A stretch of 64,000 bases of DNA from a virus: the UHGV virus genome UHGV-0092003. The stretch is one strand, 5' to 3'. Within the stretch, counting starts at the first letter, position 1. The number at the start of each line of letters is the position of its first letter. The notes under the pieces are model-generated. The model worked only from the letters and a program-made list of their open reading frames with translations. It made no database searches and had not been told where the DNA came from. The position numbers were made by a program, and so were the translations under genes. Positions 19,001-60,339 of this stretch are shown piece by piece.

Positions 19001-22000
19001 AGCAAGCGCGTTGAGCAATCTGTCCACGACAGTTTCTCAGCAGGGAAGCACCGTAACTTCTCAGGGTGCGGCAATCACAAAGCTGCAAAATGATTTAAGC
19101 TCCACAAAAACCGATGTCTCGAAAAAGGCTGACTCGACGGCGTTGCAGACGCTGCAGAACACCGTTACTGATCAGGGTAAAACGCTGACCAGCCAAGGCA
19201 ATGCAATCACGGCTTTGACCGGCACCGTTGACACGGTAAAAGGTGATGTGGCTAAGAAAGCGGATGCGACGGCTTTGAATAACCTTTCTACTCGGGTTAG
19301 CAATGCTGAAGATAAGATCAGCAGCAGCAGTGACGCCATCACTTCGCTGAACAACTCGCTGAATCAGCAGTCTAAGCGCGGCGCAAACATCTTGCCAGAC
19401 GGGACGTTCGAGAGCTATTCGAGCGGGTACAATATCACCAATGGTCGCGTCATCGTGACTACTGACGATTCTCACGGCGGAAACAAATGCATCCGTGTGA
19501 CGCGTCCGAACGACTACAATCCCAATGCAACTGACAACAGTGACAACCACATCTTCAGCGGCTTCCAGGTTCGAGATAATGCGGTGTTTTATGTTGAGTG
19601 CTGGGTTAAGTTGGATGCCAAGAGCACGACGATGGATGGTTCGGTGCAGATTGCGATCGGCATGTCGTTGCAGTATCAGGATAACTCCTGGCAGTGGCCG
19701 GCACTCATTAAGTCGGCAAAAGATCTGTCCGCAGACACCTGGACGAAAGTCAGTGGCTATCTGAAGAGCAGCAAGAGCGGTATCAAACAGGCGATGGTAC
19801 GGATCTCCATGCCAAACGTATCGGCTGTTAAGGCGGGTAACTCCTTCCTCGTCGATGATTTTGTCATTACCGACGTGACAGACGCCTATAATGCCCAGCA
19901 GACGGCTGATGCCACTGCGAGCGCGGTATCAACGCTTCAGACGACTGTGTCCAAGCAGGGCGACAGCATCACCTCGCAGGGCGACAGCATCACAACCCTG
20001 AATAATGGTCTGGCTACGGCGAACAAAGCCATTGGCACCAAGGCTGATGCCTCCGCGCTGTCATCGCTGCAAAACACCGTTACCCAGCAGGGTAAAGACG
20101 TTGCTGCCAACACCAGCAATATCACTGCGCTGTCAAATCAGGTTGTCAACGGCAAGCAGAACACCTGGTCGCGACGTATTTACAAATGTCAGCTATCTAA
20201 CTCTGCCACTGAGCCTACATTTAGCGATATCCAAGGGCTTTCTCCGGTCTTTATGGATGAAGTGGCCGACGCAGCTAAAATGGACTTCTCTGGCGCTGGG
20301 TCGTATGTGGTTGCGCATTATAAGGCAATGGTTCGTGTTGCTGCGGATACCACAATCGCCGTATCACCTGGCTCTCGTGTGTTTGATGACTCCGGTGCGG
20401 TGTATGTGAATGGTGTTCGTCAGGCTGCTGCGTTGGCTGGAACAGCTGTACTCAATTTCACACTGTCCGCCGGCTGGAATACTGTAGAGTTTCTGATTAA
20501 TCAGTGGACCGGTAATGCCTATGTCAATCTGGGCTTCAAGCTGGGCGACAAGGTTGCCGAGCTGTATTCTGGTCTGGGCGTCTCTTCACTGTCTTCGGCG
20601 CTGAACTCGATCACCTCCAACGTCAGCAAGGTGGGTGATCAGGTTTCCAGCAACAGCACGGCGATCACCTCTCTGAAGAACGGTCTGAGCGATACCAACT
20701 CTACCGTTGCGAAGAAAGCAGACGCCACGGCATTGCAGACGCTGCAAAACACCGTCACCCAGCAAGGCAAGGATATCGCAAGCCAGAGCGACAGCGTGAC
20801 GAACCTCAGCAACGCACTCAATAATGTTTCTATTGGCGGTGTCAACCTGATCAAAAACTCAGGCGACATGACCGGCTGGTCTGGTAAAACCAATGAGATC
20901 TTCCGTGGCAATGCGGTGATTAGTGCGACTTCAAAAGCTGGTAGCTCTTACCGAGATCTCAAAGAGATCATTCTCGACGCTCCAGTCGACAATGCAGAGT
21001 ACGTTTACAGTTTCTTTGCAAAAGGCGGTGAGAACGGCCAGAGCATGACCGCTTACTTCTACAATCCTAACTCGACGACATCTAGTGTTAGTAGCCAAGG
21101 TGTGTCAGGCGGTGATGTCGATGGTCGTATGTCATTCACTTTGACAACTGAGTGGGTTCGTTATTGGGTTAAGTGGAAGCAGAAGCCGGGAACTGGATCT
21201 AAGAGACTAATCCTTGCTCGCATCCAGGCATCTTCGACGAAAGATCAGACCGTCTCTATCACCAGCCCTAAGCTGGAAGTTGGCAATATGCCTACAGAGT
21301 GGTCTCCGGCGCCGAGCGATATGGCATCGTCTAACGATCTGTCATCGCTGAAGACTACGGTTGACGCGAATAGCGGCGCTATTCAGTCTGTGACCTCTCG
21401 CGTCCAGACAACTGAAGACAGCATCTCCACGCAGAATACCGCGATCACTAAGCTTCAGAGTGATTTGTCGAGCACCAACAATCTGGTTTCGACAAAGGCT
21501 GATTCAGCTGCGCTTCAGACACTGTCAGGTCGCGTAGATAAGACGGAATCCAGCATCAGCACGCAGAACGATGCAATAACCAAGCTGAACAGCAGCCTTG
21601 ATACCACAAATAAAGCTGTGGCTAAAAAGGCGGAGCAGTCGTCTCTCGATACGCTGAGCGGCCGGGTATCCAGCACTGAAAATGGAATCACGGCGGCGAA
21701 CTCCAGCATCACGTCTCTGAATGCGGCTATTCGCGCAGAGAACGCGAGCAGTGGGGATTTGATTACCAACCCTACATTTGACCCTCAGTACGCTCAGATG
21801 GGATTTACCGTCGTCACAACCGACACTGATGGTGTTCCAGCAAACTGTCCATTCAAATATGCGGCTAAACTTGCGTCCCGTGACCATCATCCAAACTTCA
21901 ACACCATTGTCGCAACGCTGGGCGATGTGTTTGAAATTTCTGTGCTGGTGGCGTGCGGCGCTGGGAATGCTGACTTTAACCTCTATATTGGCACAGCAAA

Positions 22001-25000
22001 CGGCCCAACTGGTGGGATAGGTGGCCCGCTTTATAATGGCGGAAATACCAAAGCTACAAGCACCTGGACTCGCGTAACATGGAAGTTCACTGTTAGCCAG
22101 GCAATGGTTGACAAAGGCTACATTCGTCCGTTCCTGCAAATCAACCAGTCTTCACCGTTCGGCACGATCTGGTATGTGACTGACTGGCATATGCGCAACA
22201 TCACTGCGGCATCTAAGGCGCAGGATACGGCGAATGCCACCTCTAAGGCGGTCGATTCTCTGACGTCCACAGTGAACCAACAGGGCAGCGATATTTCCTC
22301 GATCGGCTCTCGCACAACGTCGCTTGAGAATGGTCTTAGCACTACCAACGCTAACGTCGCGAAGAAGGCTGATGCTTCAGCTCTGCAAACACTCCAGAAC
22401 TCGGTGACGCAGCAGGGTAAAGATATTTCCAGCCAGGGCACTCGTGTGACGTCCATCGAGAATAGCCTGACGTCTGGTGCTAACCTCATCCCTAACGCCA
22501 AGATGCTCAATGGCGCACAGGGATGGGCTGGGGCGGCGACAACTGTCGACGGTTATGCGGCGGCAGAAAGCTCGTCTGCATGGCAACCAAGCTCACCACC
22601 GTTTGAAGTGACACCGGGCGATACGCTGGATTTAAGCCTGATGTGTCTGGCAAATGCGGCAATTACTTTCGCCTGGGGATTGCGTTTTGACGGACCTAGT
22701 CTCAGCAATAAAACCGTCTACACAAACAACTTGAGTTATCAAGCTGGTGAGAAGAAGGCTGTAAGCGGTACGATTGTCGTTCCTGCCGGCGCGACCACAG
22801 CACGGCTGCAACCGAACACCGGCGCTACCGCGAGTCTGACCGTCTATAACGTCGTCGTCACTCGTCGAGACGCAGGAACTATGGCCAACAGCTCCGCTAT
22901 TGACTCGCTGACCAGTACGGTTAAGACGCAGGGTGACACGCTTAGCTCGATCGGAAGTCGCACAACTTCGCTGGAAAATGGGCTGAAGAGCGCTAACAGC
23001 GCTCTCTCACTGAAAGCGGACGCGTCGGCACTGTCATCGCTGACAAATACCGTGACCCAGCAAGGCAAGGATCTGGATGCAGCAGAAGCCAATATAACTG
23101 CGGCGAACACCAGCATCACCTCCATGCAAGCGTCACTGACTCGTCGCACTGTATTTACGGTAACGGCGAAAGGCAACGGTAACAGCGCTAATCACGGTCT
23201 CTTTGATGAGTCAGGTAAAAATCTGTTTACGCCTGGTCGTAGCTATGCGCTGATCACGTTTAAAGCGAATAGCGACGGCTCGACGGTCATTAATACCAGC
23301 AAAACCTATGACGTTTTTGGCTCTGCCAACAACGGGAAGGCGATGTCTGACGATATTGCTGCTCTGGCTAATGGCGTTTACGTTTGCGTGATGACTTATG
23401 ACGAGCCGACGGGTCAGCGTAATTCGATTGCATCTGCCTTAGAGTTGCTCGGTGGCACAACTGAAGTTATTAACTCTCTGCCATATCGCGGCGCGTACAT
23501 TCTCCTTGGCCGTAAAGGCATGAAGGCCGGCGACGGTCTGGAGTTACGCGCACCTACAGGTGGTGACTCCAGCGCATTTATTTCCACGTCCGTTGAGTTT
23601 GTGAACGGGGTAATGATGGGGTTGGGCGCCGCCGGCGGTGTAATGATGAAGGCGGATGCGAACGCCAGTGCAATCACCACTCTGCAAAATACCGTAACGC
23701 AGCAGGGCAAGGATATTACATCGGCCAGTAGTGCGATCACTAACCTACAGAATGGTCTCAATACGGCCAATGGGGATATCAACAAAAAAGCTGATGCGAC
23801 TGCTCTTTCCGCGCTTCAGAATACTGTGACGCAGCAAGGTAAAGATATTTCCTCTCAGGGATCATCTTTAACCCAACTGACTAATAGCCTAAATGCGACT
23901 AACGACAGCATCGACGCGTCTGGTCAGATTCCTGGAAACATGATCACCAACGCCTCATTCGAGCGTGATAACGGTGGATATAGTACCTGGAGTGGCCCTG
24001 CTTCTGTCATGGTGGCACAGTCGCCGCGAACCGGTAGCAAAATACTGAAAATCGCGTCTGGTTCTCCCACTTTGGTTGGTCAGAAAATCACATATGTGAA
24101 GGGACGTACATACAAAATCGGCATGTGGGCGCGTCAGGATTCTAATACGACGATTAATGGTGGAACGAGTAACACAAAATTCAGGGTAGCGGATAGCACC
24201 GGACTTATTGCATCGTTTGGTTACGGCCCATTCACGACGTCTTGGCAGGAAATTTCGTGGGTCTGGAAAGCGACCAAAGACATGGTTGCAGACACACAGA
24301 TCACCGCCTATCTGACCGCCGGTGCGATGTATTTCGACGACTTCTACGTCATCGACATTACTGACCGCGTCGATCTGGATGCCACAACGTCCGCGGTTTC
24401 CGGTCTGACGACGAGAGTGTCCAATGCTGAAGGGGATATTTCAAATATCTCCAACAGCGTTACCAGCCTGAACAATAGTTTGAGCACGTTGAATAAGACA
24501 GTCAGCTCTAAGGCTGATGCCTCGGCACTGTCTTCGCTGCAGAATACCGTTACTCAGCAAGGAAAAGACATCTCATCGGCGAGCGAGAGTGTCACCAACC
24601 TTCAGAGCAGTCTCAACACGCTGAAAGTCCAGACCAACCCTTGGATCGACGGCACGTTTGAAACCTATGACAATAATCAGCAGATTGGCGGCAGCACTGC
24701 GGTTATTACTACGGATTTCAAGAGCAGCGGCAACAAATGTCTGAAGGTGACTCGCCCAGCGAATGCAAGTGGAAACTCCGATAAGACTATAGGTTCTTAC
24801 TCTGTTGTGCGTCAGAGCGCCAAGTACCGCGTTGAGTTCTGGGCAATGATGCCGGCTGCAGAAGCGCCACCGTCTGGTTGGTCTGTGGCCGTAGGTCTTC
24901 ACTCCATCAACAAAGATGGTGGGAATGACTGGCAGGGCATCACGTTCAATGAGGGTAGCCTCGGCGGGCGCGATAAATGGGTGAAATTTACAGGGGTGGT

Positions 25001-25967
25001 AAGCCTGAGTGCATCGGTGACTCGTAGCCATGTGTGGATTTCGACCCGTGGTCAAAGTGGATCTAATACACCTGGTTATAGCGTGTACATTGATGATTTC
25101 GTCATTACAGACGTCACTGACGCTGCAGAGGCGCAGCAAACGGCTAATGCTAATGCGACGGCCATTTCGTCTCTGCAAGCTAAGACGAGTGATCTGGACG
25201 GGAAAATCACGGCGCAGACCAGCCAACTGACGTCGATGCAGTCGAAGGTAGACGCGTCTTCTTCGAAAGTGGATCAGCTGTCTAAGACCATTTCGGACAG
25301 TCAGAGCACTCAGGCATCGTTGAACACCAGTCTTCAGTCTCAGATTGATGCTCAGGCTTCGGCCAACATCAAAAACCAGGCTGATTTGAACTCGGCGACA
25401 ACGAGCATCGCGTCTATCAAATCGACTCAGGCGACTCAGGCGACTCAGATTAGCGCAATGGCAAAAACGCAGACTGACATGACCGCATCATTGAATAGTC
25501 AATCTGCATCTATCCAGACGCTGCAAGAGGCGGTCTCAAACAATGACGCGCTGAACAGTACCTGGATGGTGAAGATGGAAACCAACAACAACGGGCAGAA
25601 GTATGCGGCGGGCATCGCTCTCGGTGTTGATGGCAAAAATATGCAGAGTCAGTTCCTGGTTCAGGCAGATCGATTCGCGCTAATTAACACCTCGAATGGC
25701 AATACGACGACTCCGTTTGTGATTGATAATGGTGTAACCTATATGAACGCGGCCTTCATCAAGGATGGGTCAATAGGTAGCGCCAAGGTCGGTGACTTAA
25801 TGAGTTCTAATTTCCAAGAAAATGTTAGAGGTTGGAGAATCTCTCGCGATGGAACGATGAACATCAATGGCTCTGGGCCGGGTAGTTCCAGAACCGTAAT
25901 CACGAACGGTAGGATCGAAGTTTACGACTCGAATAACCGTCTGCGCGTGAGAATGGGTATTTTCTAA
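13077..25967 (+). CDS. central tail fibre / host specificity protein J-like, giant (4296 aa)
   Basis: N-terminus and C-terminus align with lambda J (…GVTWWFRDG…, NSALVGLKINSEQFGS, WMVKMETNNNGQKYAAGIALG…QFLVQADRFALIN). About 3000 aa of inserted repeat modules. Confidence 0.9.
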   Translation: MEVPNFKKSRLSQLVAHGLIISGRGGSKGGGSSRTPVEANDTVNSRAMASVLDLLGEGVIGGLIDGAKSIFLNDTPLQNSDNSYNFSGVTWWFRDGSQDQSVIDGFDFIETPKSVGRQLKQTSQVNVSLDSADSDRVRVVMKFPSLRSIDKKSGDTNGTTVQFKFQIDAGNGGGFVDVVAEGESNATISLTAKKTGVYYRSYVLDLPKPAKAYTLRAIRLTEDHTDNSYLYDDTYIDSIGEIVNTSLNYPNSALVGLKINSEQFGSSMPTRSYLIKGLKIRIPSNYNADTNSYDGNWDGTFKLASSSNPAWILFDLLTNTRYGLGQFVQESMINIGELYQIGRYCDAYVDDGFGGKEKRFSINTQITSRQDAYRVVQDIAGAFRGMVYWAGGMVHITQDSPADPVMLFSNSNVVNGSFAYKGSARKDRYSVALITYNNKEDGYKQSVEYVEDQEAIKRYGIRKTESVAFGCTSRGQAHRVGLWTLYTSRMESDVITFAVGMDSVFLMPGDIVLIADKFRAGRRNSGRITGYTSNSIKLDAPVDLTSVGNHITFLSAEGKMVGRDILENGKNITTVTFKTALSSNETPVSDAVWVIAQPDLTPLQARVVSVAEGDDGTSFNITAIQNNPTKYEAIDSGAQLIPQNTTVLDPTFSKPSGLAITEGTYLSSPGNLSVSLTATWQGKSAQYYISWRRSDAGNVSNWKSERVTEEQFELRGVAENGQYDFQVYAVSVGGRKTDPISITYKVLGTMTAPDAPTGLTAVGDYRSIVLNWVNPASVDLDHIEVLASKTNDKSKAQLIAKVSGTTFSHNGLEDSVTWYYWVRAANKRGMLSALNSPLATTATTRDVLSFLQNKITESELGQALITDINSKAVATEVDAAIDDAKSQATNQVNSARAEAANAVSQAQKTLDSLIKQEVTDRKSAVADEARQRAKAIADEADARTKAISDEATARADAISKEVTARDKAIADEATARAKAVADEASARASAISDSIAVEANARAKAISDSASTLSAKIDKEASDRAAAVSALDTKTANALSSETSSRIAAISDEAKTRADSILQEQNSRKADISTLKTQVQTSTDSLAQQISQVAAGTGEQFDSLNIWYFDTSNEGWTEDDSGNTPMSVTSDGWLRSASSTASYRSPNYMAIDAAAYRFVKLRLKKVGSPVWAGKLFWIGTSEGGWSDARSLTINEPEYDANGVATLTIHDIDWRSSETIRRFRFDFLKNQDSTNYVQIDWIAVGRPTPGAGMAALQAEQTARANADAAEAANRNTLAVQIRGSYDGNDLSKVSSGLIFQEQQARVTADKAEATARQSLETKVNDSVSSINKSLDTLNTQDKAMASDISGIKSSLGNKADASALQTLKTTVDQQGSSISTQGQSITKLQNDLNTTNTNVGKKADQTALVSLQGTVTQQGKDITSANSSITNLKTSLDATNSNLAKKADASAVGDLSSRVSATEDKVSSQGDSIVQLNNSLNNALADSDASSKTPNNLIVNPSFERGTDGYIGVSSLSTVVDIQIPHVGTKALKIDPGSSVSPGQYIDFVKGRTYEIGVWAKQVSGTADNGQSNNKLRVGNSAGAPVFEVPFANLTVDWTKVSKRWKATETGSLPVTLSNYLTAGNRYFDDFYVIDVTDSVAIDANASALSSLQNTVTQQGKDISSQSTSITDLNNSLKTTNDNVAKKADSSAVQTLQNTVTQQGKDISAATSDISSLKNGLATTDGNVAKKADASALQSLQNTVTQQGKDLTSVGSRTTALENNLKATNDNVATKADASALSTLQNTVSQHGDSIASQSDSITSLKNSVGSMVNMGDNLVQDSSFDNGGQTFRTQQNSGTSGSIVAFGAFGENSAGVRMVKVNSTSPGLFANGKLPVPVNGARKYRYIVRAKGVSGAMNMLLRRWNFNGNTEGAYEDKNNTLTTDWQTITWDTSFSPKDGVNGQSFGIYCHPANAEIWIDSFQVFDITDAFNNDTTASALSNLSTTVSQQGSTVTSQGAAITKLQNDLSSTKTDVSKKADSTALQTLQNTVTDQGKTLTSQGNAITALTGTVDTVKGDVAKKADATALNNLSTRVSNAEDKISSSSDAITSLNNSLNQQSKRGANILPDGTFESYSSGYNITNGRVIVTTDDSHGGNKCIRVTRPNDYNPNATDNSDNHIFSGFQVRDNAVFYVECWVKLDAKSTTMDGSVQIAIGMSLQYQDNSWQWPALIKSAKDLSADTWTKVSGYLKSSKSGIKQAMVRISMPNVSAVKAGNSFLVDDFVITDVTDAYNAQQTADATASAVSTLQTTVSKQGDSITSQGDSITTLNNGLATANKAIGTKADASALSSLQNTVTQQGKDVAANTSNITALSNQVVNGKQNTWSRRIYKCQLSNSATEPTFSDIQGLSPVFMDEVADAAKMDFSGAGSYVVAHYKAMVRVAADTTIAVSPGSRVFDDSGAVYVNGVRQAAALAGTAVLNFTLSAGWNTVEFLINQWTGNAYVNLGFKLGDKVAELYSGLGVSSLSSALNSITSNVSKVGDQVSSNSTAITSLKNGLSDTNSTVAKKADATALQTLQNTVTQQGKDIASQSDSVTNLSNALNNVSIGGVNLIKNSGDMTGWSGKTNEIFRGNAVISATSKAGSSYRDLKEIILDAPVDNAEYVYSFFAKGGENGQSMTAYFYNPNSTTSSVSSQGVSGGDVDGRMSFTLTTEWVRYWVKWKQKPGTGSKRLILARIQASSTKDQTVSITSPKLEVGNMPTEWSPAPSDMASSNDLSSLKTTVDANSGAIQSVTSRVQTTEDSISTQNTAITKLQSDLSSTNNLVSTKADSAALQTLSGRVDKTESSISTQNDAITKLNSSLDTTNKAVAKKAEQSSLDTLSGRVSSTENGITAANSSITSLNAAIRAENASSGDLITNPTFDPQYAQMGFTVVTTDTDGVPANCPFKYAAKLASRDHHPNFNTIVATLGDVFEISVLVACGAGNADFNLYIGTANGPTGGIGGPLYNGGNTKATSTWTRVTWKFTVSQAMVDKGYIRPFLQINQSSPFGTIWYVTDWHMRNITAASKAQDTANATSKAVDSLTSTVNQQGSDISSIGSRTTSLENGLSTTNANVAKKADASALQTLQNSVTQQGKDISSQGTRVTSIENSLTSGANLIPNAKMLNGAQGWAGAATTVDGYAAAESSSAWQPSSPPFEVTPGDTLDLSLMCLANAAITFAWGLRFDGPSLSNKTVYTNNLSYQAGEKKAVSGTIVVPAGATTARLQPNTGATASLTVYNVVVTRRDAGTMANSSAIDSLTSTVKTQGDTLSSIGSRTTSLENGLKSANSALSLKADASALSSLTNTVTQQGKDLDAAEANITAANTSITSMQASLTRRTVFTVTAKGNGNSANHGLFDESGKNLFTPGRSYALITFKANSDGSTVINTSKTYDVFGSANNGKAMSDDIAALANGVYVCVMTYDEPTGQRNSIASALELLGGTTEVINSLPYRGAYILLGRKGMKAGDGLELRAPTGGDSSAFISTSVEFVNGVMMGLGAAGGVMMKADANASAITTLQNTVTQQGKDITSASSAITNLQNGLNTANGDINKKADATALSALQNTVTQQGKDISSQGSSLTQLTNSLNATNDSIDASGQIPGNMITNASFERDNGGYSTWSGPASVMVAQSPRTGSKILKIASGSPTLVGQKITYVKGRTYKIGMWARQDSNTTINGGTSNTKFRVADSTGLIASFGYGPFTTSWQEISWVWKATKDMVADTQITAYLTAGAMYFDDFYVIDITDRVDLDATTSAVSGLTTRVSNAEGDISNISNSVTSLNNSLSTLNKTVSSKADASALSSLQNTVTQQGKDISSASESVTNLQSSLNTLKVQTNPWIDGTFETYDNNQQIGGSTAVITTDFKSSGNKCLKVTRPANASGNSDKTIGSYSVVRQSAKYRVEFWAMMPAAEAPPSGWSVAVGLHSINKDGGNDWQGITFNEGSLGGRDKWVKFTGVVSLSASVTRSHVWISTRGQSGSNTPGYSVYIDDFVITDVTDAAEAQQTANANATAISSLQAKTSDLDGKITAQTSQLTSMQSKVDASSSKVDQLSKTISDSQSTQASLNTSLQSQIDAQASANIKNQADLNSATTSIASIKSTQATQATQISAMAKTQTDMTASLNSQSASIQTLQEAVSNNDALNSTWMVKMETNNNGQKYAAGIALGVDGKNMQSQFLVQADRFALINTSNGNTTTPFVIDNGVTYMNAAFIKDGSIGSAKVGDLMSSNFQENVRGWRISRDGTMNINGSGPGSSRTVITNGRIEVYDSNNRLRVRMGIF

Positions 25968-37391: not shown

Positions 37392-37858
37392 GTCAGTTCG
37401 AGCCGCAAGTAGGCCAATTATGCCAGATGATTTACACCAACGCGGACGTTCCGCAATGGGTTAACTGCTTTCCAAAGGCAGTATCGCCACATGGTATTGC
37501 TGTGAGCATTGACGTTGTCAACGAAGGTGAAAGAACACTCTGGTTTGATAGCTTCCAGATTAATCGCAACATCGTTTTCCGCCCGATCGTTCCTGAAAGT
37601 AAGCTGTGGGCCGCTAAGGACTCTGACGATGTCTACGAGATGGTATGCCTTAGCAACGTGCTTACCGCTAAGCCCGGTTTCCCTCTGACTGTCATTTTCA
37701 AAAACAAAGACAATGAGATTTTCTCCATGGATGCCGTCGATTTTCTGGATAACTACGAACCTAAGCCGAGTGATTTACCGATGGCAGAGCAAAGCGATCA
37801 GTGCGACATCCTCGATTCTCAGGATGAGCCTGTTGTTGTTGCGGGAGAGCTTCAATAA
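37388..37858 (+). CDS. hypothetical protein (156 aa)
   Basis: RBS GAGGAAAACACATG. Confidence 0.45.
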   Translation: MSQFEPQVGQLCQMIYTNADVPQWVNCFPKAVSPHGIAVSIDVVNEGERTLWFDSFQINRNIVFRPIVPESKLWAAKDSDDVYEMVCLSNVLTAKPGFPLTVIFKNKDNEIFSMDAVDFLDNYEPKPSDLPMAEQSDQCDILDSQDEPVVVAGELQ

Positions 37859-39186
37859 TGGAAAAGCTGATTGCTCTGCGTGGGAAACTGGACGCCATTA
37901 AAGCGATGGGAACCAATGCCAAAAAGGTCGCTCTGGCTGAACTGGATGCGTTTGAACAGGAAATGGTATCCATGATGCTCAACCCGTTCATCCGATTCGG
38001 CGTGAAGAAGTACAAGGTGGCAGAACCGGCGCTGGAGAATAAAATCTGCGATGAAGATGCTATCCAGATCCTGTGCTCGCTGGCCGACCGTCGAATTTCC
38101 GGTGGCGCCGCTGTCGCAACGGTAGAACAGGCGATATCTGACATGACGGCGGAAGGTCAAGACGTCTTCCGTCGCTTCCTGATTAAAGACCCAAAGGCCG
38201 GCATCGGCATTAGCCTGTGCAATAAGATTTTCGACAATCCAATCCCGGTGTTCGAGGTCCAGCTGGCTACGTCGTACAAAGAAAAAGGCGACAAATTCCC
38301 GTTCAAGGAAAACCCGAAAGCCAAATTCCCGATGATTGCCAGTCTCAAGCTGGACGGAATGCGCGTCATTGCCGAAGTCATCGTTGACGAGGAAGAGGTT
38401 AACTTCCTGTCCCGTACCGGCAACCCGGTAACGTCTCTCGACCATCTGAAGCCAGCAATGTTGGATCTGGCCCGACAGACGCCGCATAACCATATCTTCT
38501 TTGATGGTGAAGCGACGGCCGGCTCTTTTAATGACTCCATCTCAGCGCTGCGCAAAAAGGGAGTTTCAGCCATTGGGGCGGTGTTCCATATCTTCGATTA
38601 CTTCTTGCCGGAATGGAAAGCCATTGCCAAAACGAAGGAGTACAAAAAGACCGGCCGCATCCTGAAAGATCGCCATATCGATTTGTGCAGCTGGACTAAC
38701 TGGAAACGTCGACCGGACAACCAATACAAAGGCGACGTGCGACTTCATGACTTCCAGCTGGTACATAGTCATAAAGAGTTCATCGATTTATTTATGGCGG
38801 CGCTGGACGCTAACGAAGAGGGTTATATGGCAAAAGACCCCTTCTCCGTTTACGAGTTTAAGCGCACCAAAAGCTGGTGGAAGATGAAGGACGAGATCGA
38901 AGCTGACGGCGAGATTATCGGCTTCAAGCCCGGTAAGGAAGATTCGGCATTCGCTCATACGCTCGGCTCAGTGACTATCCGTCTGGAGAACGGCGTGGAA
39001 GTTGAAGCGTCCGGCATAAAGCACATGTACCTGGATGAAATCTGGAACAATCAGGACAAGTATATGGGACGTATCGTGAAGATTAATGCTCACGAAGAGA
39101 CTCCAGACGGCAGTTTGCGTCACCCACGCCTCAAATGGCCATCCTGTCTGCGCGACACTGAAGACCGCATCGGGGATAAGGAATGA
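37858..39186 (+). CDS. ATP-dependent DNA ligase
   Basis: Adenylation motif I KLDGMR (KxDG). Confidence 0.8.
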   Translation: MEKLIALRGKLDAIKAMGTNAKKVALAELDAFEQEMVSMMLNPFIRFGVKKYKVAEPALENKICDEDAIQILCSLADRRISGGAAVATVEQAISDMTAEGQDVFRRFLIKDPKAGIGISLCNKIFDNPIPVFEVQLATSYKEKGDKFPFKENPKAKFPMIASLKLDGMRVIAEVIVDEEEVNFLSRTGNPVTSLDHLKPAMLDLARQTPHNHIFFDGEATAGSFNDSISALRKKGVSAIGAVFHIFDYFLPEWKAIAKTKEYKKTGRILKDRHIDLCSWTNWKRRPDNQYKGDVRLHDFQLVHSHKEFIDLFMAALDANEEGYMAKDPFSVYEFKRTKSWWKMKDEIEADGEIIGFKPGKEDSAFAHTLGSVTIRLENGVEVEASGIKHMYLDEIWNNQDKYMGRIVKINAHEETPDGSLRHPRLKWPSCLRDTEDRIGDKE

Positions 39187-39600: not shown

Positions 39601-39741
39601 ATGGGAGCTATCGCCGGGTTTTTACTCGGCGTAGTTGTTACCCACGATTTGATTAAGCAGGAAATTAAAACTGGCGTCATTTGCTTTGGGCGCCGTGTAT
39701 ATCGAGTGGTTCACTCGACTGACATAAGGAATAAAAAATGA
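39601..39741 (+). CDS. small membrane protein (46 aa), paralog of 39183 ORF
   Basis: Shared pattern IK…GV.EF.GR.Y+.V. Below the ORF-track size cut-off. Confidence 0.3.
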   Translation: MGAIAGFLLGVVVTHDLIKQEIKTGVICFGRRVYRVVHSTDIRNKK

Positions 39742-39980
39742 ACGATCATATCTTGGCAGTATTTATTTTGGCGTGTGTCTTTTTTTCAACCGGTAAGGTG
39801 GTGAGCTGGGTCATCGATGTCGTTATGGCAAAATTCGTATCTGGCAACAAACAGTTATCTAGTGCGGTTTCGAAGTTAATCAGTGTTGCCTCGCTTCATT
39901 TTGGTAGCATTGAGAAAGATAAAGAGTATTCAGTAAAAACAAGCGGTTACACCATAACCATTCAAAAAAACAAAAAATAA
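39738..39980 (+). CDS. small membrane protein (80 aa)
   Basis: N-terminal TM segment. Confidence 0.35.
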   Translation: MNDHILAVFILACVFFSTGKVVSWVIDVVMAKFVSGNKQLSSAVSKLISVASLHFGSIEKDKEYSVKTSGYTITIQKNKK

Positions 39981-39985
39981 GATAA

Positions 39986-40001
39986 ATAAGTGTTTACTTA
40001 T
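39986..40001. promoter_or_regulatory. family-A palindrome ATAAGT-GTTT-ACTTAT
   Basis: Perfect 6-bp half-sites with a 4-bp spacer. Confidence 0.4.
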
Positions 40002-40343
40002 CTATAAGTTTTCACTAAGATTAACTCGTTTTCGACGTTAAGCGACTTTGCGGTTTTTTAGAAACTGACCAACAAAGTAAATGCAAACGATGATGTAGTT
40101 CTGATGGCGGCTTAACAGCCTATAAGTCAGTGAGGTCTTCCGATTCCTCATTAACAAATTCGGCGCATTGTGGGTACCGAGATGTGATTAATAAATCGGA
40201 ATCTTAAAGAAGTGTTTTGGGTGATGGCCTTTTAGTTTGTCGATTAGCTGTGCATAGCGTCGGCGAGCAAAGTCTGGTGACTTAAAGGTTTATTCCGATG
40301 CCTGGTATGTGAAATGCAAATAGCATATTTGAGGCAGAGGATT

Positions 40344-40371
40344 GCGGGTTCGATTCCCGCGTCACTCTCCC
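40344..40371 (+). other. tRNA 3' fragment (T-arm GCGGG-TTCGATT-CCCGC + acceptor 3' strand), no 5' half
   Basis: Canonical T-arm. No 7-mer within 130 nt upstream can pair with GTCACTC. Confidence 0.4.
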
Positions 40372-40377
40372 ACGTTT

Positions 40378-40454
40378 CAGCTGTTTGGGTGGTTAGGAGT
40401 ATTTTCATTAACCATGTCCCGGTTTCAGTAAGCAACTGACCGCCCAAACAGCTG
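40378..40454 (+). other. long stem-loop (15-bp stem CAGCTGTTTGGGTGG/CCGCCCAAACAGCTG, ~47-nt loop)
   Basis: 14/15 complementary arms inside the 1.1-kb non-coding region. Confidence 0.45.
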
Positions 40455-40774
40455 CGTCGTGTGTGATTACTTAATGTCTCATTTCATCTTGGGTTAATTT
40501 GAAATTGCGACGCAGCGCCTTTCTCAAAGCGTGCAGAAGGTTTTGAGAAAGTGCGTGCTAACGATCGGACTTTCTTCTGCCATTGATAGACTCGTTTAGA
40601 GCTTGATATGTAGGCCATAGCCCAGCCGGAGGTGGCGAACACCGGCAGACTGAGATGTTAGTCGATTGAAGAGGTTTTATCATCGCCTCGATCTTAACTC
40701 CAGACCATCAAATATGCCTCCGCTGTTTGATGACAGGCTCAGTCCGTTTCCTCTTAACGATAAAAGAGGTGCAA

Positions 40775-40857
40775 GCAAACAAAGCAGTCTGGTTGACTGC
40801 GGCCGAGGAAGACGTCTTATCCGGCAGAGAGTGGTTCGATTCCGCTTGTTTGCGCCA
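40775..40857 (+). tRNA. tRNA-like gene with aberrant anticodon arm
   Basis: Perfect acceptor GCAAACA/TGTTTGC. D-stem GCAG/CTGC with GG in the loop. T-arm AGTGG-TTCGATT-CCGCT. Discriminator G plus encoded CCA. The 29-nt region in the anticodon-arm position gives no canonical 5-bp stem with a 7-nt loop. Confidence 0.45.
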
Positions 40858-41118
40858 ACCTAAAGGGTTTTTTCGAGAGTCCTTCAGATTGGATACCCAA
40901 TGCGACCTTGGGTAACTTATCTAAGATGATGTGATTCCATACATCACTTAGTGTCGAGGTCTAAATGGTGCGGCCATCAACCGCATAAACAGCCATTAGA
41001 CCCGAGCCACAAGCCTCGTCTGGCACTAACGTAAAGTGCAAGTGACGTGAAATTCAGGTTGTACGGCCAGAAGAGTAGCGTTGCGAACCATATAAATTAA
41101 ACTACAAAGAGAAAACAC

Positions 41119-41730
41119 ATGTCTGAAGTCAAAAAAGTTATTACCGTAGCTGAGCGTTCCACTAAAGCACTGGTTAAAGTTGTTGCTGACGGCCAAAAGC
41201 TGTTCGCTGATCTGGCCGCTCTGTCTCAGTCAACCGTAACTCTGACTGAAGAAATTGAATTCAAACAAGGTCAGCTGGCCGATATCGAAAACCAGATCGC
41301 CGCATCCGAGCGCGAATCCAAAGCCCAGCTGCGTCTGCGTGTAATCGAAAACGAAGACAAAGTTCTGGCCGAACTGATGAAAGCACGCGGTTATGCTGTT
41401 ATCACTCACGCTGATCTGGATGCACTAAACTCTGAACTGGTCGCGGCCAAAACCGATAACGAGTACGCAGTATCCGAAGCGCGTGAAGCTGGTTATCAGG
41501 CTGCTGCTGCTAAATTTGGCGCTGAAAATCGTGATCTGGTTTCCCAGCACAAAGTTGAGCTGGCAGAGCACAAGGCCCAGGCCACTGCTAAAAACCAACG
41601 CATTTCCGATCTGGAAGCGCAGGTTGCAGAGCTTCGCGGCCAGATCACTGCTGAACGTGAAACCCGTCTCGAAATCGCCAAAGCTGATGCCGGTCGAGCA
41701 GGTGTTGTAGTTAACGCCGGCAAGAACTAA
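41119..41730 (+). CDS. coiled-coil protein, highly expressed codon usage (203 aa)
   Basis: RBS GAGAAAACACATG. Strong bias to major codons. Followed by two terminators. Confidence 0.55.
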   Translation: MSEVKKVITVAERSTKALVKVVADGQKLFADLAALSQSTVTLTEEIEFKQGQLADIENQIAASERESKAQLRLRVIENEDKVLAELMKARGYAVITHADLDALNSELVAAKTDNEYAVSEAREAGYQAAAAKFGAENRDLVSQHKVELAEHKAQATAKNQRISDLEAQVAELRGQITAERETRLEIAKADAGRAGVVVNAGKN

Positions 41731-41890: not shown

Positions 41891-41910
41891 ATAAGTAATG
41901 ATTTACTTAT
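41891..41910. promoter_or_regulatory. palindrome ATAAGTAA-TGAT-TTACTTAT (family A)
   Basis: Perfect; upstream of phoH. Confidence 0.5.
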
Positions 41911-41960
41911 CTAATGCAGTTATATTTATTGCTACACCTAACCATTTGAAAGGAATCAAA

Positions 41961-42728
41961 ATGGGTACATCACGCAAACATGCGCGTAAGGTAGCGCGTA
42001 AAGCAGTAAAAGAGAATCGTGCGCTCCGTGGCCGTCGTGTTGATTACGTTATTGTCGATGAGCTGACCGACGCTCAGACCCCACGACCAAAGCGAGACAA
42101 TACGCCAGTTGAGGCCCGTAACGAGGCTCAGGCGCATTATCTTATCAGCATCGAAAACAAGCCTCTGACGTTCGCCACCGGTGAAGCCGGCTGCGGCAAA
42201 ACGTTCCTTGCCACGGCTGTCGCCGCACAGAAGCTGTTGGATAAAGACGTCCGCAAAATCATCGTCACTCGCCCCGTATTACAAGCTGACGAAGATCTGG
42301 GCTTCCTTCCGGGCGATGTGGGTGAGAAGTTCGCCCCATACTTCCGCCCCGTCTATGACGTTCTCCAGAAGCGTCTGGGCGCATCCTTCCTCGAATACTG
42401 TCTCAAGCCAGAGATTGCCAAAGTAGAAATCGCCCCGTTCGCTTACATGCGTGGTCGGACGTTCGAAAACGCAGTGGTTATTCTGGATGAAGCGCAAAAC
42501 GTTACACCGTCACAGATGAAGATGTTCCTGACCCGCATGGGTGAGAACGTTACGGTTATCGTGAACGGCGATGTGACGCAGTGTGACCTGCCTGGTAATA
42601 AAGAGTCCGGGCTATCCGACGCACTGCGCCGCTTTAAACCAAACGCGCACGTTGGGTTGATTGAGTTTGAAGCCGACGATTGCGTCCGCTCTGAACTCTG
42701 CAAAGTGGCTTTAAATGCCTATCAATAG
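41961..42728 (+). CDS. phoH: PhoH-like ATPase
   Basis: Walker A GEAGCGKTF and ILDEAQN. Start taken at the ATG with RBS AAAGGAATCAAA. Confidence 0.75.
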   Translation: MGTSRKHARKVARKAVKENRALRGRRVDYVIVDELTDAQTPRPKRDNTPVEARNEAQAHYLISIENKPLTFATGEAGCGKTFLATAVAAQKLLDKDVRKIIVTRPVLQADEDLGFLPGDVGEKFAPYFRPVYDVLQKRLGASFLEYCLKPEIAKVEIAPFAYMRGRTFENAVVILDEAQNVTPSQMKMFLTRMGENVTVIVNGDVTQCDLPGNKESGLSDALRRFKPNAHVGLIEFEADDCVRSELCKVALNAYQ

Positions 42729-42738
42729 GGATATTGAA

Positions 42739-43260
42739 ATGACAAAAGTAAAATTACCGAAATACCAAAGCATCAAAATCGTGGAAGCGGCTAAGATTGC
42801 GAAAATCGAGGGACAGGTAATGCTGTTATCCTTCCGCAAGCATGGAACAAAAGTCGAAGTAGATCAGACTTATCTCGACAAGCACCAGCCTCAAGTTGGC
42901 GGTTATTTCGTCCGCTATGAAAACGGTTATGAGTCCTACTCACCAAAAGAGCCGTTTGAGTCGGGCTATTTATCAGTCGAAACCACTATCCACGCCGCCA
43001 AGACAGGTGCATCTTTTGGCATCGCAATCGAGATGCTGAAAGACGGCCATCGCGTCGCTCGCAAAGGCTGGAACGGCAAAGGTATGTTCTTGCGCATGGT
43101 GTCAGGCAAACAGTACGACGTCGCTTGCGGCATTGCTCGTGATCTGGAGCTGGCGCCCTGGATTGGCATGAAAACAGCTGACGGGAAATTTGTACCATGG
43201 CTGGCGTCCCAAACCGACATGTTGGCTGAGGATTGGGTGATTGTGGAGGTTGCACAGTGA
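42739..43260 (+). CDS. hypothetical protein
   Basis: ATG with RBS AGGGATATTGAA. Confidence 0.4.
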   Translation: MTKVKLPKYQSIKIVEAAKIAKIEGQVMLLSFRKHGTKVEVDQTYLDKHQPQVGGYFVRYENGYESYSPKEPFESGYLSVETTIHAAKTGASFGIAIEMLKDGHRVARKGWNGKGMFLRMVSGKQYDVACGIARDLELAPWIGMKTADGKFVPWLASQTDMLAEDWVIVEVAQ

Positions 43261-60092: not shown

Positions 60093-60121
60093 TTGACTCT
60101 GCCAATGACTTCATCATAGAT
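60093..60121 (+). promoter_or_regulatory. candidate σ70 promoter TTGACT-17-ATAGAT
   Basis: Placed between the two terminators with no ORF downstream. Confidence 0.35.
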
Positions 60122-60127
60122 TGTCAA

Positions 60128-60339
60128 GGTGGTGAATCCCCCTGAGCGGTGGGGCGACCAGTCAGTTACAGTGATCTGTAAATGCAGCGCGAGCCATGTC
60201 GGCTGGGACATGCTCACCGGGAGGCACCCGGCACCACAAGCGTTACTAAGCAAATTCGTAGCAGAATTAACCCCTTGTTAACCCTGTTATGTTTAACAAA
60301 TCCAATTTCAACCCGCCCCCCCTTGTGCGGGTTTTTTTT
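60128..60339 (+). ncRNA. candidate ~210-nt small RNA (promoter to terminator)
   Basis: Bounded by the candidate promoter and the strong terminator at 60312–60339. Contains several internal inverted repeats. The only plus-strand ORF here is antisense to the minus-strand gene. Confidence 0.3.
60312..60339 (+). terminator. rho-independent terminator
   Basis: CCCGC-CCCCCTTGT-GCGGG followed by T9. Confidence 0.7.

Follow-up and report, generated by a model that had tools for sequence, protein, structure and literature searches.

A tmRNA is defined by uniting a tRNA-like with an mRNA-like part in a single particle, and the tag specified by the E. coli molecule reads ANDENYALAA. To our knowledge, the exceptions are two-piece forms, in which the acceptor stem joins the parts, and a single phage form with the tRNA-like domain only. 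The two-piece permuted tmRNAs of alpha- and betaproteobacteria and cyanobacteria (RF04321, RF01849-51) consist, when mature, of two molecules, one with the coding part and the other with the T-arm and CCA. Complete phage tmRNAs are found in mycobacteriophages Bxz1, Cali, Catera and others, and in Bacillus phage G. Phage tRNA arrays, that of T4 for example, hold small stable RNAs among the tRNA genes, probably freed by tRNA-processing enzymes, which by description resembles the arrangement reported below; T4 species 1 and 2 RNAs are tRNA-like small RNAs to which no function is assigned. Mycobacteriophage DS6A, lastly, encodes a tmRNA with a tRNA-like domain only (PMC4131195, PMC11915505).

The locus compared here with these systems is a 1.1-kb gap in a 64,000-nt stretch of viral DNA (the window; UHGV-0092003) from an N4-like phage with a 4,296-aa virion RNA polymerase ORF. 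Judged by its sequence, the gap is a phage small-RNA locus made up of a row of tmRNA- and tRNA-derived modules, and its position is that at which related N4-like phages keep tRNA genes. Replication genes adjoin it: a Pfam scan of ten neighbouring proteins returned DNA ligase, a primase domain, a DnaB-type helicase, PhoH and a Tad2-like domain, the others having no match. An earlier note on this DNA had described the 1.1-kb region as non-coding and structured, and this description was borne out, with every sequence feature lying where it had been placed. Compared with three related contigs (L151, L183 and L181), the non-coding modules are 94-100% identical and the upstream protein gene only 56%. 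The features of the first part of the locus are as follows.

39738-39980: protein gene, directly upstream of the locus, without T-arm or CCA
39993..40021, + strand: candidate sigma-70-type promoter (TTTACT, 17-nt spacer, TAAGAT), read from the sequence
40028..40202, + strand: tmRNA-like "tag element" (mRNA-like domain and pseudoknots, without tRNA-like domain), from covariance model R1
40028..40078, + strand: 5' part, a near-invariant GUUUUCG followed by hairpin HP1 (ACUUUG/CAAAGU plus GGU/ACC), from covariation
within 40028..40078, + strand: candidate pseudoknot PK1, GUUUU (40028-32) with GAAAC in the HP1 loop, from the pairing as read
40083..40115, + strand: putative tag reading frame, GCA AAC GAU GAU GUA GUU CUG AUG GCG GCU UAA, giving ANDDVVLMAA and stop
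40109..40120, + strand: hairpin H5 (GGCU/AGCC) with stop codon UAA in its loop, from covariation
40130..40163, + strand: pseudoknot PK2, from covariation
40164..40199, + strand: pseudoknot PK3 with conserved loop motif UGUGAUUAAUAA, from covariation
40203..40218, + strand: variable linker from the tag element to the next module

The tag element was recognised by covariance model R1, which was built from other phages and finds a sole copy in the window (146.2 bits, E 5.3e-36). In the alignment fitted to the model (49 distinct homologues), pairing reached 94.8% of cells and 16 pairs changed on both sides, against 35-60% paired in slid controls; none of 500 shuffles matched the observed values on four of five measures, while further pair types were matched by 195 of them. 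A MAFFT alignment gave similar pairing (96.3% of cells, with 8 pairs changing on both sides). Support is spread over the structure. In HP1 pairing stands at 91.7%, and L001/L002, SUSP2 and L096 show double changes; in H5, where 81% of cells are paired, three of four pairs change on both sides. Stem 1 of PK2 (GUGAGG, 40130-35, with CCUCAU, 40146-51) is 99.3% paired with 3 covarying pairs, and its stem 2 (CCGA, 40140-43, with UCGG, 40160-63) is 100% paired with 2. In PK3, stem 1 (CGCAU, 40164-68, with AUGUG, 40182-86) is 91.8% paired and is supported by a separate analysis, one of its pairs occurring 29 times as CG, 8 as UA and 2 as GC; stem 2 (CCGA, 40177-80, with UCGG, 40196-99) is 99.6% paired and six of seven pairs covary. 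The pairs of PK1 almost never vary and are therefore uninformative either way. By eye, GAUAGUUUUCG at the 5' end of the element looks like the last part of the "5' tRNA domain" in genuine permuted tmRNAs (gatcgattttcgtg, actagtttcgac).

A long-range helix (40044-51/40267-74) was considered as an analogue of helix 2 and set aside, as the local HP1 covaries better (L001/L002, SUSP2, L096). Two changes in relatives fit wobble pairing in this helix, and it is not relied on here. The first 175 nt of the region, which make up the tmRNA-like element, had gone unremarked in the earlier note.

The candidate promoter at 39993..40021 agrees with 8 of 12 consensus positions and is 98% conserved in relatives; its score lies under the threshold of the promoter scan tool, which called none there. 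It would place a possible transcript start at ~40027-40029. Better promoters occupy the equivalent place in SUSP2 (TTGACA-17-TATAGT) and STGO-35-1 (TTGACA-17-TAGATT), and because these apparent promoters abut the element, there is no room in either phage for a 5' acceptor strand.

The putative tag lies in the resume context UAAAU|GCA. Every family member read, very divergent ones included, has a tag of 10 codons followed by a stop. These tags start with AN(D/E), with few exceptions (e.g. ANSD, ASDD, ENDD), and end with a small or hydrophobic residue and then A, the two exceptions being single loci (ANDDLMMVAP and ANDDVVLMAD). The tag of P1 would read ANDDLMMAAA or ANDDLMMVAA. Synonymous variants are common (GUA/GUU/GUC, UUG/CUG, GCU/GCG/GCC, AAC/AAU), and the stop codon alternates between UAA and UAG. 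The pN/pS ratio is lowest in the tag frame, at 0.63, the alternative frames giving 1.90 and 1.16; an overlapping AUG frame (AUG CAA ACG...) was ruled out by its varying ORF lengths together with its pN/pS of 1.90. A ratio of 0.63 is mild, and since the end of the tag sequence is shared with the H5 stem, the fixed length of the frame could owe something to RNA structure, so that we regard the coding evidence as moderate only. Real translation of the tag appears plausible on these grounds, to a degree just short of probable.

The element shares several features with the standard tmRNA (SsrA; RF00023). A resume codon GCA follows an A/U-rich leader, the tag starts with AND and ends with a hydrophobic residue and A-A, the stop codon lies in a hairpin loop (helix 5), and the reading frame is followed by pseudoknots and preceded by a candidate one; the window also has a T-arm with the family consensus 260 nt downstream. 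Unlike the standard molecule, the element lacks an acceptor stem formed from two ends, a 5' end with D-loop and acceptor strand, and the long helix 2 that joins the body to the tRNA-like domain. It has two downstream pseudoknots rather than three, is ~175 nt long where the E. coli molecule has 363 nt, falls under the ARAGORN and Rfam thresholds, and is carried by phages and P1-like plasmids rather than by bacterial chromosomes.

The best Rfam match of the element is the permuted tmRNA (RF04321), with 34.1 bits (E 6.8e-5) on 39966-40115 against a gathering score of 47. RF00023 gave no match on the region at its gathering score, local matches reaching only 7.5-17 bits. At curated thresholds, the covariance-model searches proposed in the earlier note contradict a tRNA or known RNA family in a formal sense only: the sub-threshold matches point to tmRNA, and the comparative analysis confirms this. 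As in permuted tmRNAs, the coding part here would be a separate molecule from one that bears a T-arm and a candidate CCA end; the two also have a near-identical resume region, UAAAUGCAAACGAU, and the 5' end of the element resembles, by eye, the last part of the 5' tRNA domain of the permuted coding piece. The difference is that permuted genes have an acceptor piece with CCA immediately upstream and a coding piece that opens with a 5' acceptor strand, both of which are absent here. A permuted gene order was ruled out, the sequence directly upstream being a protein gene (39738-39980) without T-arm or CCA. A one-piece tmRNA with an upstream 5' acceptor strand was likewise rejected, as the E. coli-equivalent segment (CUAAGAU, 40015-21) cannot pair with the 3' strand and nothing upstream of the element was found to be complementary to GUCACUC. 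ARAGORN reported no tmRNA in the window, in the tested GenBank and IMG/VR loci, or in 78 metagenome loci. A search with the 14-mer around the resume codon retrieves many genuine ARAGORN-detected tmRNAs (dozens share it), and none of the ARAGORN-detected tmRNAs in the IMG/VR scans, the 78 metagenome loci or the GTDB scan has the PK3 motif of the family.

Compared with DS6A, the locus is similar, by description, in offering a partial phage-borne tmRNA, and the first tRNA-like module downstream (below) has a putative acceptor stem and a T-arm, likewise with no tag. The family as a whole keeps the opposite half, namely tag and pseudoknots, unlike DS6A, in which the tRNA-like half is kept. With full-length phage tmRNAs the family would share phage-encoded trans-translation components adjoining phage tRNA genes; unlike those, which are complete and detected by ARAGORN or Rfam, its members have gone undetected.

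The family is widespread. About 726-727 of 50,697 phage records match window positions 40026-40200 at 65-94% identity, and they belong to unrelated phage families. Carriers include Ackermannviridae, Schitoviridae, Felixounavirus, Chaseviridae, Jersey-like siphoviruses and P1/P7, and the element is present in at least six phage families. Among E. coli genomes it occurs in 656 of 5,426, mostly on P1-like plasmids, and among species-representative genomes in only 5 of 185,579; this places the family on mobile elements rather than in the core genome of bacteria. In the phage records the annotation beneath the matches is "none" or "hypothetical protein". Context was counted at the 42 loci with a 1 kb flank on both sides: under strict criteria, a tRNA array or tRNA-like modules adjoin the element in 28, and in the other 14 neither a tRNA nor a perfect T-arm lies within 1 kb, so a constant T-arm or tRNA beside the element fails as a family-wide rule. 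In P7 the element stands between the C1-controlled ban operator and tRNA-Asn/Thr, and in SUSP2 between tRNA-Ile and tRNA-Arg. An apparent overlap with tRNA-Ser/tRNA-Asn in FSL SP-076 was ruled out, the tRNA coordinates of that record being offset by ~1 kb.

The tag element is a member of a large and apparently undescribed phage RNA family with a structure backed by covariation, and this is very probably a functional RNA family derived from tmRNA. No description was found in the searchable literature, outside which most subscription journals lie, so an earlier description is possible. An RNA gene that has escaped annotation, in some records overlaid by a spurious "hypothetical protein", is present in over 700 phage genomes of GenBank and on hundreds of plasmids in E. 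coli. The stronger proposition, that phages of enterobacteria from many families, among them P1, have a free-standing tmRNA "body" with a truly translated tag, we consider doubtful.

Downstream of the tag element the features are:

40219..40372, + strand: tRNA-like module 1 (TLM-1), 154 nt, cloverleaf-like, from its fold and T-arm consensus
40378..40454, + strand: long hairpin with a 19-bp stem, from its fold (-38.0 kcal/mol)
40455..40774, + strand: further conserved structured non-coding RNA, with a second copy of motif UGUGAUUA at 40460-75
40775..40857, + strand: tRNA-like module 2 (TLM-2), 83 nt, from ARAGORN, fold and covariation
40894..40914, + strand: remnant of a third tRNA-like module, UACCCAA UGCGACC UUGGGUA, an acceptor stem left by internal deletion

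The linker before TLM-1 is only 56% identical to that of relatives, in which it is ~77 nt longer, and conservation restarts exactly at GGGUGAU, the 5' acceptor strand, which marks the module boundary; TLM-1 itself is 97% identical in relatives. In order, it comprises GGGUGAU (40219-25), a 66-nt domain, a long hairpin arm at 40294-40341 with AAAUGCAAAU in its loop, the T-arm (40344-60), GUCACUC (40361-67) and U-CCCA. A canonical T-arm had already been noticed within 40344-40371, and at 40344-40360 it agrees with the Rfam tmRNA T-arm consensus at 17 of 17 positions. The accompanying claim, that this was a 3' half with no 5' partner, does not stand: GGGUGAU at 40219-40225 pairs with 40361-40367, though by our own estimate a 7-nt partner for the 3' strand would be met by chance in ~17% of cases. 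The module folds into four arms at -58.5 kcal/mol (z -3.25), and none of 200 shuffles was as good. Against E. coli ssrA, only the T-arm is significantly similar (5 of 1000 shuffles); "PK4-like" and "helix-2-like" similarities seen by eye in a global alignment did not survive the shuffles. The acceptor stem is without G3:U70, having G2.U71 and G3-C70 instead, and the 3' end, GUCACUC-U-CCCA, is one nucleotide over NCCA. A T-arm with such a 3' end is absent from most other carriers.

The orphan 3' half had been likened in the earlier note to what phage attP sites carry when a tRNA gene is the integrase target, and 40775-40857 had been taken as a possible decoy, regulator or pseudogene. On an attP reading, the tRNA or tmRNA gene of the host would end with GGTTCGATTCCCGCGTCACTC. 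Many integrases do target the 3' end of ssrA or tRNA genes (PMC11915505), and the T-arm is tmRNA-like. The stretch has, however, its own 5' partner inside a conserved 154-nt module, and no attB was found: an exact copy of the 22-mer GGTTCGATTCCCGCGTCACTCT, which spans T-loop, stem and acceptor strand, occurs in none of 185,579 species genomes, and BLAST of 39985-40460 against 5,426 E. coli genomes matches the tmRNA-like part only. The phage is N4-like, and there is no integrase among the ten neighbouring proteins scanned with Pfam. We regard the attP reading as extremely unlikely.

From its sequence features, the tag element is most likely a phage-specified template for, or modulator of, trans-translation; its transcription, its processing, the translation of the tag and a tRNA-like partnership we infer. 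In the explanation that we prefer, tRNA-processing enzymes would free the element from a multi-module precursor by cutting the flanking tRNA or tRNA-like modules, and the freed element would act as template for trans-translation on stalled ribosomes, whose nascent chains would receive the phage tag (here ANDDVVLMAA) in place of the host ANDENYALAA. The tRNA-like function would be supplied in trans, and here the adjacent module at 40219-40372 with its tmRNA-type T-arm is the obvious candidate, the two together forming a split tmRNA. The remaining tRNA-like modules (40775-40857 and the remnant at 40894-40914) would most likely be processing punctuation or decoys. As a whole this explanation is held tentatively, at somewhat less than even odds. 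No route to the ribosome is evident: the family members examined lack a 5' acceptor strand and show no tRNA-like domain consistently in cis, and 14 of the 42 loci are those without tRNA or perfect T-arm within 1 kb. As for TLM-1, it has no homologue in GenBank phages and therefore cannot be a general partner; furthermore, RNAduplex pairing between tag element and TLM-1 was no better than in shuffled controls. That TLM-1 is the partner of the tag element is accordingly unlikely.

If the template reading were true, a ribosome rescue template could be physically apart from any tRNA-like domain, which either a phage tRNA-like RNA or host tmRNA-SmpB would provide in trans, unless it were not needed, and phages would rewrite the degradation tag on stalled proteins during infection. 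A family keeping only the mRNA-like and pseudoknot part would represent either a new way of feeding a template to stalled ribosomes or a new phage countermeasure to the protein quality control of the host. The carriers include workhorse phages (P1/P7, Felix O1-like, Vi1-like, N4-like and members of the BASEL collection), and the matter is therefore directly testable with existing genetics.

The same element could instead be a decoy or inhibitor of host trans-translation, in which case it would go untranslated, mimic the body of tmRNA and titrate binding factors such as S1, RNase R or the ribosome, a TLM-1 unable to be charged would titrate SmpB, and phage proteins would be spared tagging and degradation. 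The lack of a tRNA-like domain in the tag element agrees with this, as do the missing G3:U70 and the non-canonical 3' end of TLM-1. DS6A offers a parallel in its tmRNA with a tRNA-like domain only, and a similar molecule is reported to inhibit tmRNA strongly, perhaps via SmpB titration (PMC4131195, PMC11915505, citing Mao et al. 2009). A decoy has no need, however, for a frame of constant length, synonymous changes, UAA/UAG exchange and a degron-like C-terminus in divergent members, and TLM-1 is missing from nearly all carriers. We think a decoy rather unlikely.

Alternatively, the element might be a template that works without a tRNA-like domain of its own and hijacks rescue, either by docking on host tmRNA-SmpB or by its GCA entering the empty A site to be read by Ala-tRNA. 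Tag frame and resume context are indeed conserved in the absence of such a domain. In addition, the conserved 5' sequence GCGAC..GCGG(C)UUUUU is complementary to nt 70-90 of E. coli tmRNA, which comprise the PK1 3' strand and the resume site, at -26 to -29 kcal/mol, and the variants of GCGAC (GCGAU, GCGGC, GUGGC) would all keep wobble pairing with a fixed GUCGC. These duplex energies lie, however, within about 0 to 2.4 sd of shuffles and are inconsistent between members, and the complementarity may simply follow from homology to the host PK1 5' strand. No intermolecular pairing between element and host tmRNA was better than in shuffled controls, windowed ssrA scans being marginal and inconsistent. 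We know of no precedent for a free RNA loaded into the mRNA channel of the 70S ribosome, which also weighs against this mode of action, and it seems improbable. The template supplied with tRNA-like function in trans remains our preferred reading.

In TLM-2 the 7-bp acceptor stem (GCAAACA/UGUUUGC), D-arm with GG, T-arm GGUUCGAUUCC and encoded CCA, all given in the earlier note, agree with both the sequence and the ARAGORN drawing. The 4-bp stem proposed in place of an anticodon stem (40802-05/40822-25) gains support from L151 and L183, in which the G:C pair 40802/40825 is replaced by A:U, and in the minimum-energy fold it extends to a closed 9-bp arm with an ACGU tetraloop. ARAGORN gives 40775-40857 (+) as a forced tRNA-Phe(gaa), a call that uses a C.U-mismatched anticodon stem, a loop AGGAAGA with G at 33 rather than U33, and a 12-nt variable loop; a canonical 5-bp anticodon stem with a 7-nt U33 loop is not present. 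Rfam yields no tRNA match for TLM-2 at the gathering score of 29, the best of the clan being tRNA-Sec (23.7 bits, E 0.06). TLM-2 is 98-100% identical in relatives. It thus keeps the acceptor, D and T arms and CCA, like other phage tRNA-like RNAs, and differs from those of T4 in having a closed tetraloop arm in place of the anticodon loop, because of which it cannot decode. The view of it as tRNA-like with an aberrant anticodon arm is upheld; decoy, regulator or pseudogene had been suggested as its role, and processing punctuation or a decoy is most likely.

The whole locus might also be read as decay, that is, as a set of tRNA and tmRNA pseudogenes that a former tRNA array left behind and that now serve at most for spacing or processing. 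Decoding is beyond all three tRNA-like modules, one of them is deleted in the window relative to its relatives, and L269, a metagenome contig, holds a 5'-deleted copy of the tag element. Such decay would not account for the compensatory changes throughout the tag element and in TLM-2, for non-coding modules far better conserved than the adjacent protein gene, or for the persistence of the element in at least six phage families. As an account of the locus it is very improbable, and for the tag element it is disfavoured.

The sequence between the first two modules is conserved as well. The hairpin at 40378-40454 had been recognised with a 15-bp stem; the hairpin is confirmed and its stem folds as 19 bp, unchanged in relatives, with every substitution in the loop. 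The part at 40455..40774 is 98% identical in L151 and L183 and 89% in L181, where 1-nt and 4-nt indels within this middle part of the region break any frame and thereby leave no protein-coding reading; other changes in L181 preserve stems (GAGG..CCUC to GAGAC..GUCUC). In relatives the third tRNA-like module is ~52 nt longer, T-arm included, and the L151 copy scores 33.7 bits against the Rfam tRNA model.

A permissive Rfam scan of positions 39900–41200 returned a match to tmRNA_permuted at 39966–40115 (34 bits, E 6.8e-5), and the T-arm in this region also produced tmRNA matches. The features that an earlier note had described in the non-coding gap proved to be real, but its inventory overlooked a tmRNA-like RNA with an mRNA-like domain and pseudoknots, here called the tag element. 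The phage is N4-like, with a 4,296-aa ORF at 13077–25967, and the gap is surrounded by replication-type genes (a DnaB-like helicase, a primase domain). No nucleotide matches to GenBank phages were found in the 22 kb around the region, with the exception of one ∼160-nt stretch. The principal features are:

37858–39186, ATP-dependent DNA ligase gene, flanking the region
40028–40202 (+), tag element
40219–40372, first tRNA-like module (TLM-1)
40775–40857 (+), second tRNA-like module (TLM-2)
41898–42728, PhoH gene, flanking the region
42715–43260, gene for a Tad2-like protein (Thoeris anti-defence 2-like (Tad2) domain, E 4.5e-26), directly 3' of the PhoH gene

Approximately 70 loci were collected from GenBank and IMG/VR, and further ones from metagenomes. 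For 19 members aligned with MAFFT, pairing in the proposed structure was 96.3%, with 8 pairs changed on both sides. None of 500 shuffles equalled the observed pairing, the number of doubly changed cells or the covariation score; the 8 doubly changed pairs were equalled by 10 of 500, and slid controls were 32–57% paired. The covariance model built from this alignment recovered the window copy at 40028–40202 (146 bits, E 5e-36), its sole copy in the window. When 49 distinct sequences were fitted to the model, 94.8% of cells were paired and 16 pairs had changed on both sides. The layout is the same as that of the tmRNA body (hairpin, tag frame, H5, PK2 and PK3, in order), and comprises the following around the tag frame:

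Hairpin, perhaps a pseudoknot, just 5' of the resume codon (GCA at the tag start)
H5, hairpin 3' of the tag frame, with the stop codon inside its loop
PK2, H-type pseudoknot 3' of H5, with covariation in both stems
PK3, second pseudoknot 3' of PK2, with stem 1 and stem 2 supported in separate analyses

One metagenome contig (OBJT01000135.1) carries a 5'-deleted copy in which H5, PK2 and PK3 remain; the tag is mostly gone and the resume codon is absent.

The tag reading frame at 40083–40115 (GCA AAC GAU GAU GUA GUU CUG AUG GCG GCU UAA) specifies ANDDVVLMAA and a stop, compared with ANDENYALAA for the E. coli tag. All family members read have 10 codons plus a stop; other tags include ANDDLMMVAA, ANEEMYLAVA, ANDEQFLAVA, ANDNVFLAVA and ANDTEFKAAA, along with ANDSEMRVAA in Chaseviridae and ANEEAYLMVA in Gamaleyavirus. 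Synonymous differences are common in the frame (UUG/CUG, AAC/AAU and UAA/UAG among them), and its pN/pS is 0.63, against 1.90 and 1.16 for the other two frames. These sequence comparisons are moderate, not strong, evidence that the tag is translated. An overlapping AUG frame was considered as a real ORF and rejected as unconserved. The 14-mer at the resume codon, TAAATGCAAACGAT, also matched dozens of tmRNA-type tag frames (AND...AA) in IMG/VR viral contigs, most of them with longer tags (ANDNFAPSGYALAA and similar). Three of these loci run through ARAGORN (L007, L014 and L043) were permuted two-piece tmRNA genes, which may be phage-encoded or may belong to host DNA beside prophages; the Rfam tmRNA_permuted match thus arose because the 14-mer is common to permuted tmRNA genes.

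By BLAST, 726–727 phage records out of 50,697 contain a ∼160–175-nt tag-element stretch at 65% to 94% identity to the window copy. Among these carriers are Ackermannviridae, Schitoviridae, Felixounavirus and relatives, Chaseviridae, Jersey-like siphoviruses and P1/P7, and the annotation beneath the matches was either none or "hypothetical protein". The element was also found in 656 of 5,426 complete E. coli genomes, where it was mostly plasmid-borne, and in only 5 of 185,579 species-representative genomes. No description of the family was found in the literature searched.

The 5' acceptor strand was absent in all family members, ARAGORN called no tmRNA in any carrier tested, and a tRNA or perfect T-arm lay within 1 kb of the element in 28 of 42 loci, with none in the other 14; this is therefore a family without a tRNA-like domain. 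There is good support for regarding the tag element as a functional RNA family derived from tmRNA. Because the tag frame is conserved, we favour a mechanism in which the element would give trans-translation a template specified by the phage, and the tRNA-like function would come from elsewhere, in trans. This proposal is weakened by the lack of a demonstrated tRNA-like partner, and we know of no established route into the ribosome for an RNA without a tRNA-like domain. The main rival, in which the element would act as a decoy for, or an inhibitor of, the host's trans-translation, has a precedent in DS6A, which has an RNA consisting of the tRNA-like domain only (PMC4131195, PMC11915505).

In P7 the tag element has the C1-controlled ban operator on one side and tRNA-Asn/Thr on the other, and the trailer GCACAACAGGUAAG comes after the element as well as after tRNA-Thr. 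The SUSP2 copy is flanked by tRNA-Ile and tRNA-Arg, and the STGO-35-1 copy heads a unit closed by tRNA-Met and a terminator. These settings, together with the common P7 trailer, place the element in a "tRNA slot", and it is probably excised by the same enzymes as tRNAs. SUSP2 and STGO-35-1 have good sigma-70-type promoters ending 7–12 nt 5' of GUUUUCG; the window has a weaker candidate at 39993–40021, under the threshold of the scan tool. Directly 5' of the element in P1/P7-type sequences (∼640–695 of the P7 locus) is a hairpin resembling a terminator, GCCCATCTTCGGGTGGGC, with a T-run after it; this suggests a short, separate transcript that begins at the ban promoter and stops there. The deposited tRNA features of Salmonella phage FSL SP-076 (KC139520.1) are ∼1,040 nt off their ARAGORN positions, so that a protein gene seems to overlap four tRNAs.

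In many prophage-like contigs the element sits in module arrays with long inverted flanks, and some of these arrays include 61-nt modules that resemble tRNAs but have no anticodon arm. Inverted flanks (GGTAAGAGCATTGAG with CTCAGTGCTCTTTCC; CCGTTGTGG with CCACAACAGG) bound the module arrays of the carriers L003, L006 (for example 977–1091), L054, L077, L145 and L187. Stretches from -330 to +560 nt around the tag were inspected in L077, L096 and L158, and contained 61–62-nt tRNA-like modules (acceptor stem, D-like hairpin and T-arm, with no anticodon arm and no encoded CCA) immediately 5' or 3' of the element. A second recurrent array module, GTGGTGAATGCGCAGGCTGATGCGC ... GCCGGAGATCAGCNCCGGCCACCAC, resembles another unannotated structured RNA.

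TLM-1 includes a T-arm at 40344–60 that is equal to the tmRNA consensus. The earlier note took this 3' half for an orphan, but its acceptor strand (40361–67) pairs with GGGUGAU at 40219–25, and the whole module forms a four-arm fold (z -3.25). Compared with the window, three related contigs have a large indel whose end falls exactly at GGGUGAU, which fits a module start there. The loop of the long arm contains AAAUGCAAAU, nine bases of which also occur in the resume region. Speaking against assignment to the tmRNA type, TLM-1 has no G3:U70 pair, its 3' end is UCCCA, and its similarity to E. coli ssrA outside the T-arm is not significant. No homologues were found in GenBank phages, and searches of E. 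coli and species genomes lent no support to the proposal that the 3' half is an attP site.

ARAGORN called a single gene in the 64 kb, TLM-2, as tRNA-Phe(gaa). This call is forced, as it depends on a mismatch in the anticodon stem, on a loop (AGGAAGA) that lacks U33 and on a variable loop of 12 nt; no Rfam tRNA reached the gathering score, the best in the clan being tRNA-Sec (23.7 bits). The acceptor stem, D-arm, T-arm and CCA read as first described, as does the 4-bp stem pairing 40802–05 with 40822–25, in which G40802 and C40825 jointly become A and U in two related contigs. In the minimum-energy fold this stem grows into a 9-bp arm that an ACGU tetraloop closes, and TLM-2 therefore has no anticodon loop. 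The long hairpin at 40378–40454 likewise holds up, its stem being kept and its loop variable in relatives, and 40455–40774 is conserved, with stem-preserving changes and indels. Just 3' of the hairpin, TGTGTGATTACTTAAT (40460–40475) gives a second occurrence of GTGTGATTAATAA, the motif conserved in the PK3 loop of the tag element; its UGUGA may fit the T-loop consensus U-G/U-N-R-A. A remnant of a third tRNA-like module lies at 40894–40914; the module is intact in relatives (33.7 bits with the Rfam tRNA model in L151). Identity to relatives is 94–100% for the non-coding modules and 56% for the upstream protein gene.

Just 5' of the gene at 41119, 50 nt (41003–41052) share 94% identity with an unannotated stretch of Salmonella phage SSU5 (42428–42477). 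Lastly, the Rfam sRNA family STnc100 is matched over its full length at 60098–60294 (+) of the window (74.8 bits, E 4e-14), and phage phi G17 has a weaker STnc100-like match (28.5 bits, 1406–1530 of the collected locus) ∼350 nt 3' of its tag element; a further phage small RNA may thus accompany tag-element loci.
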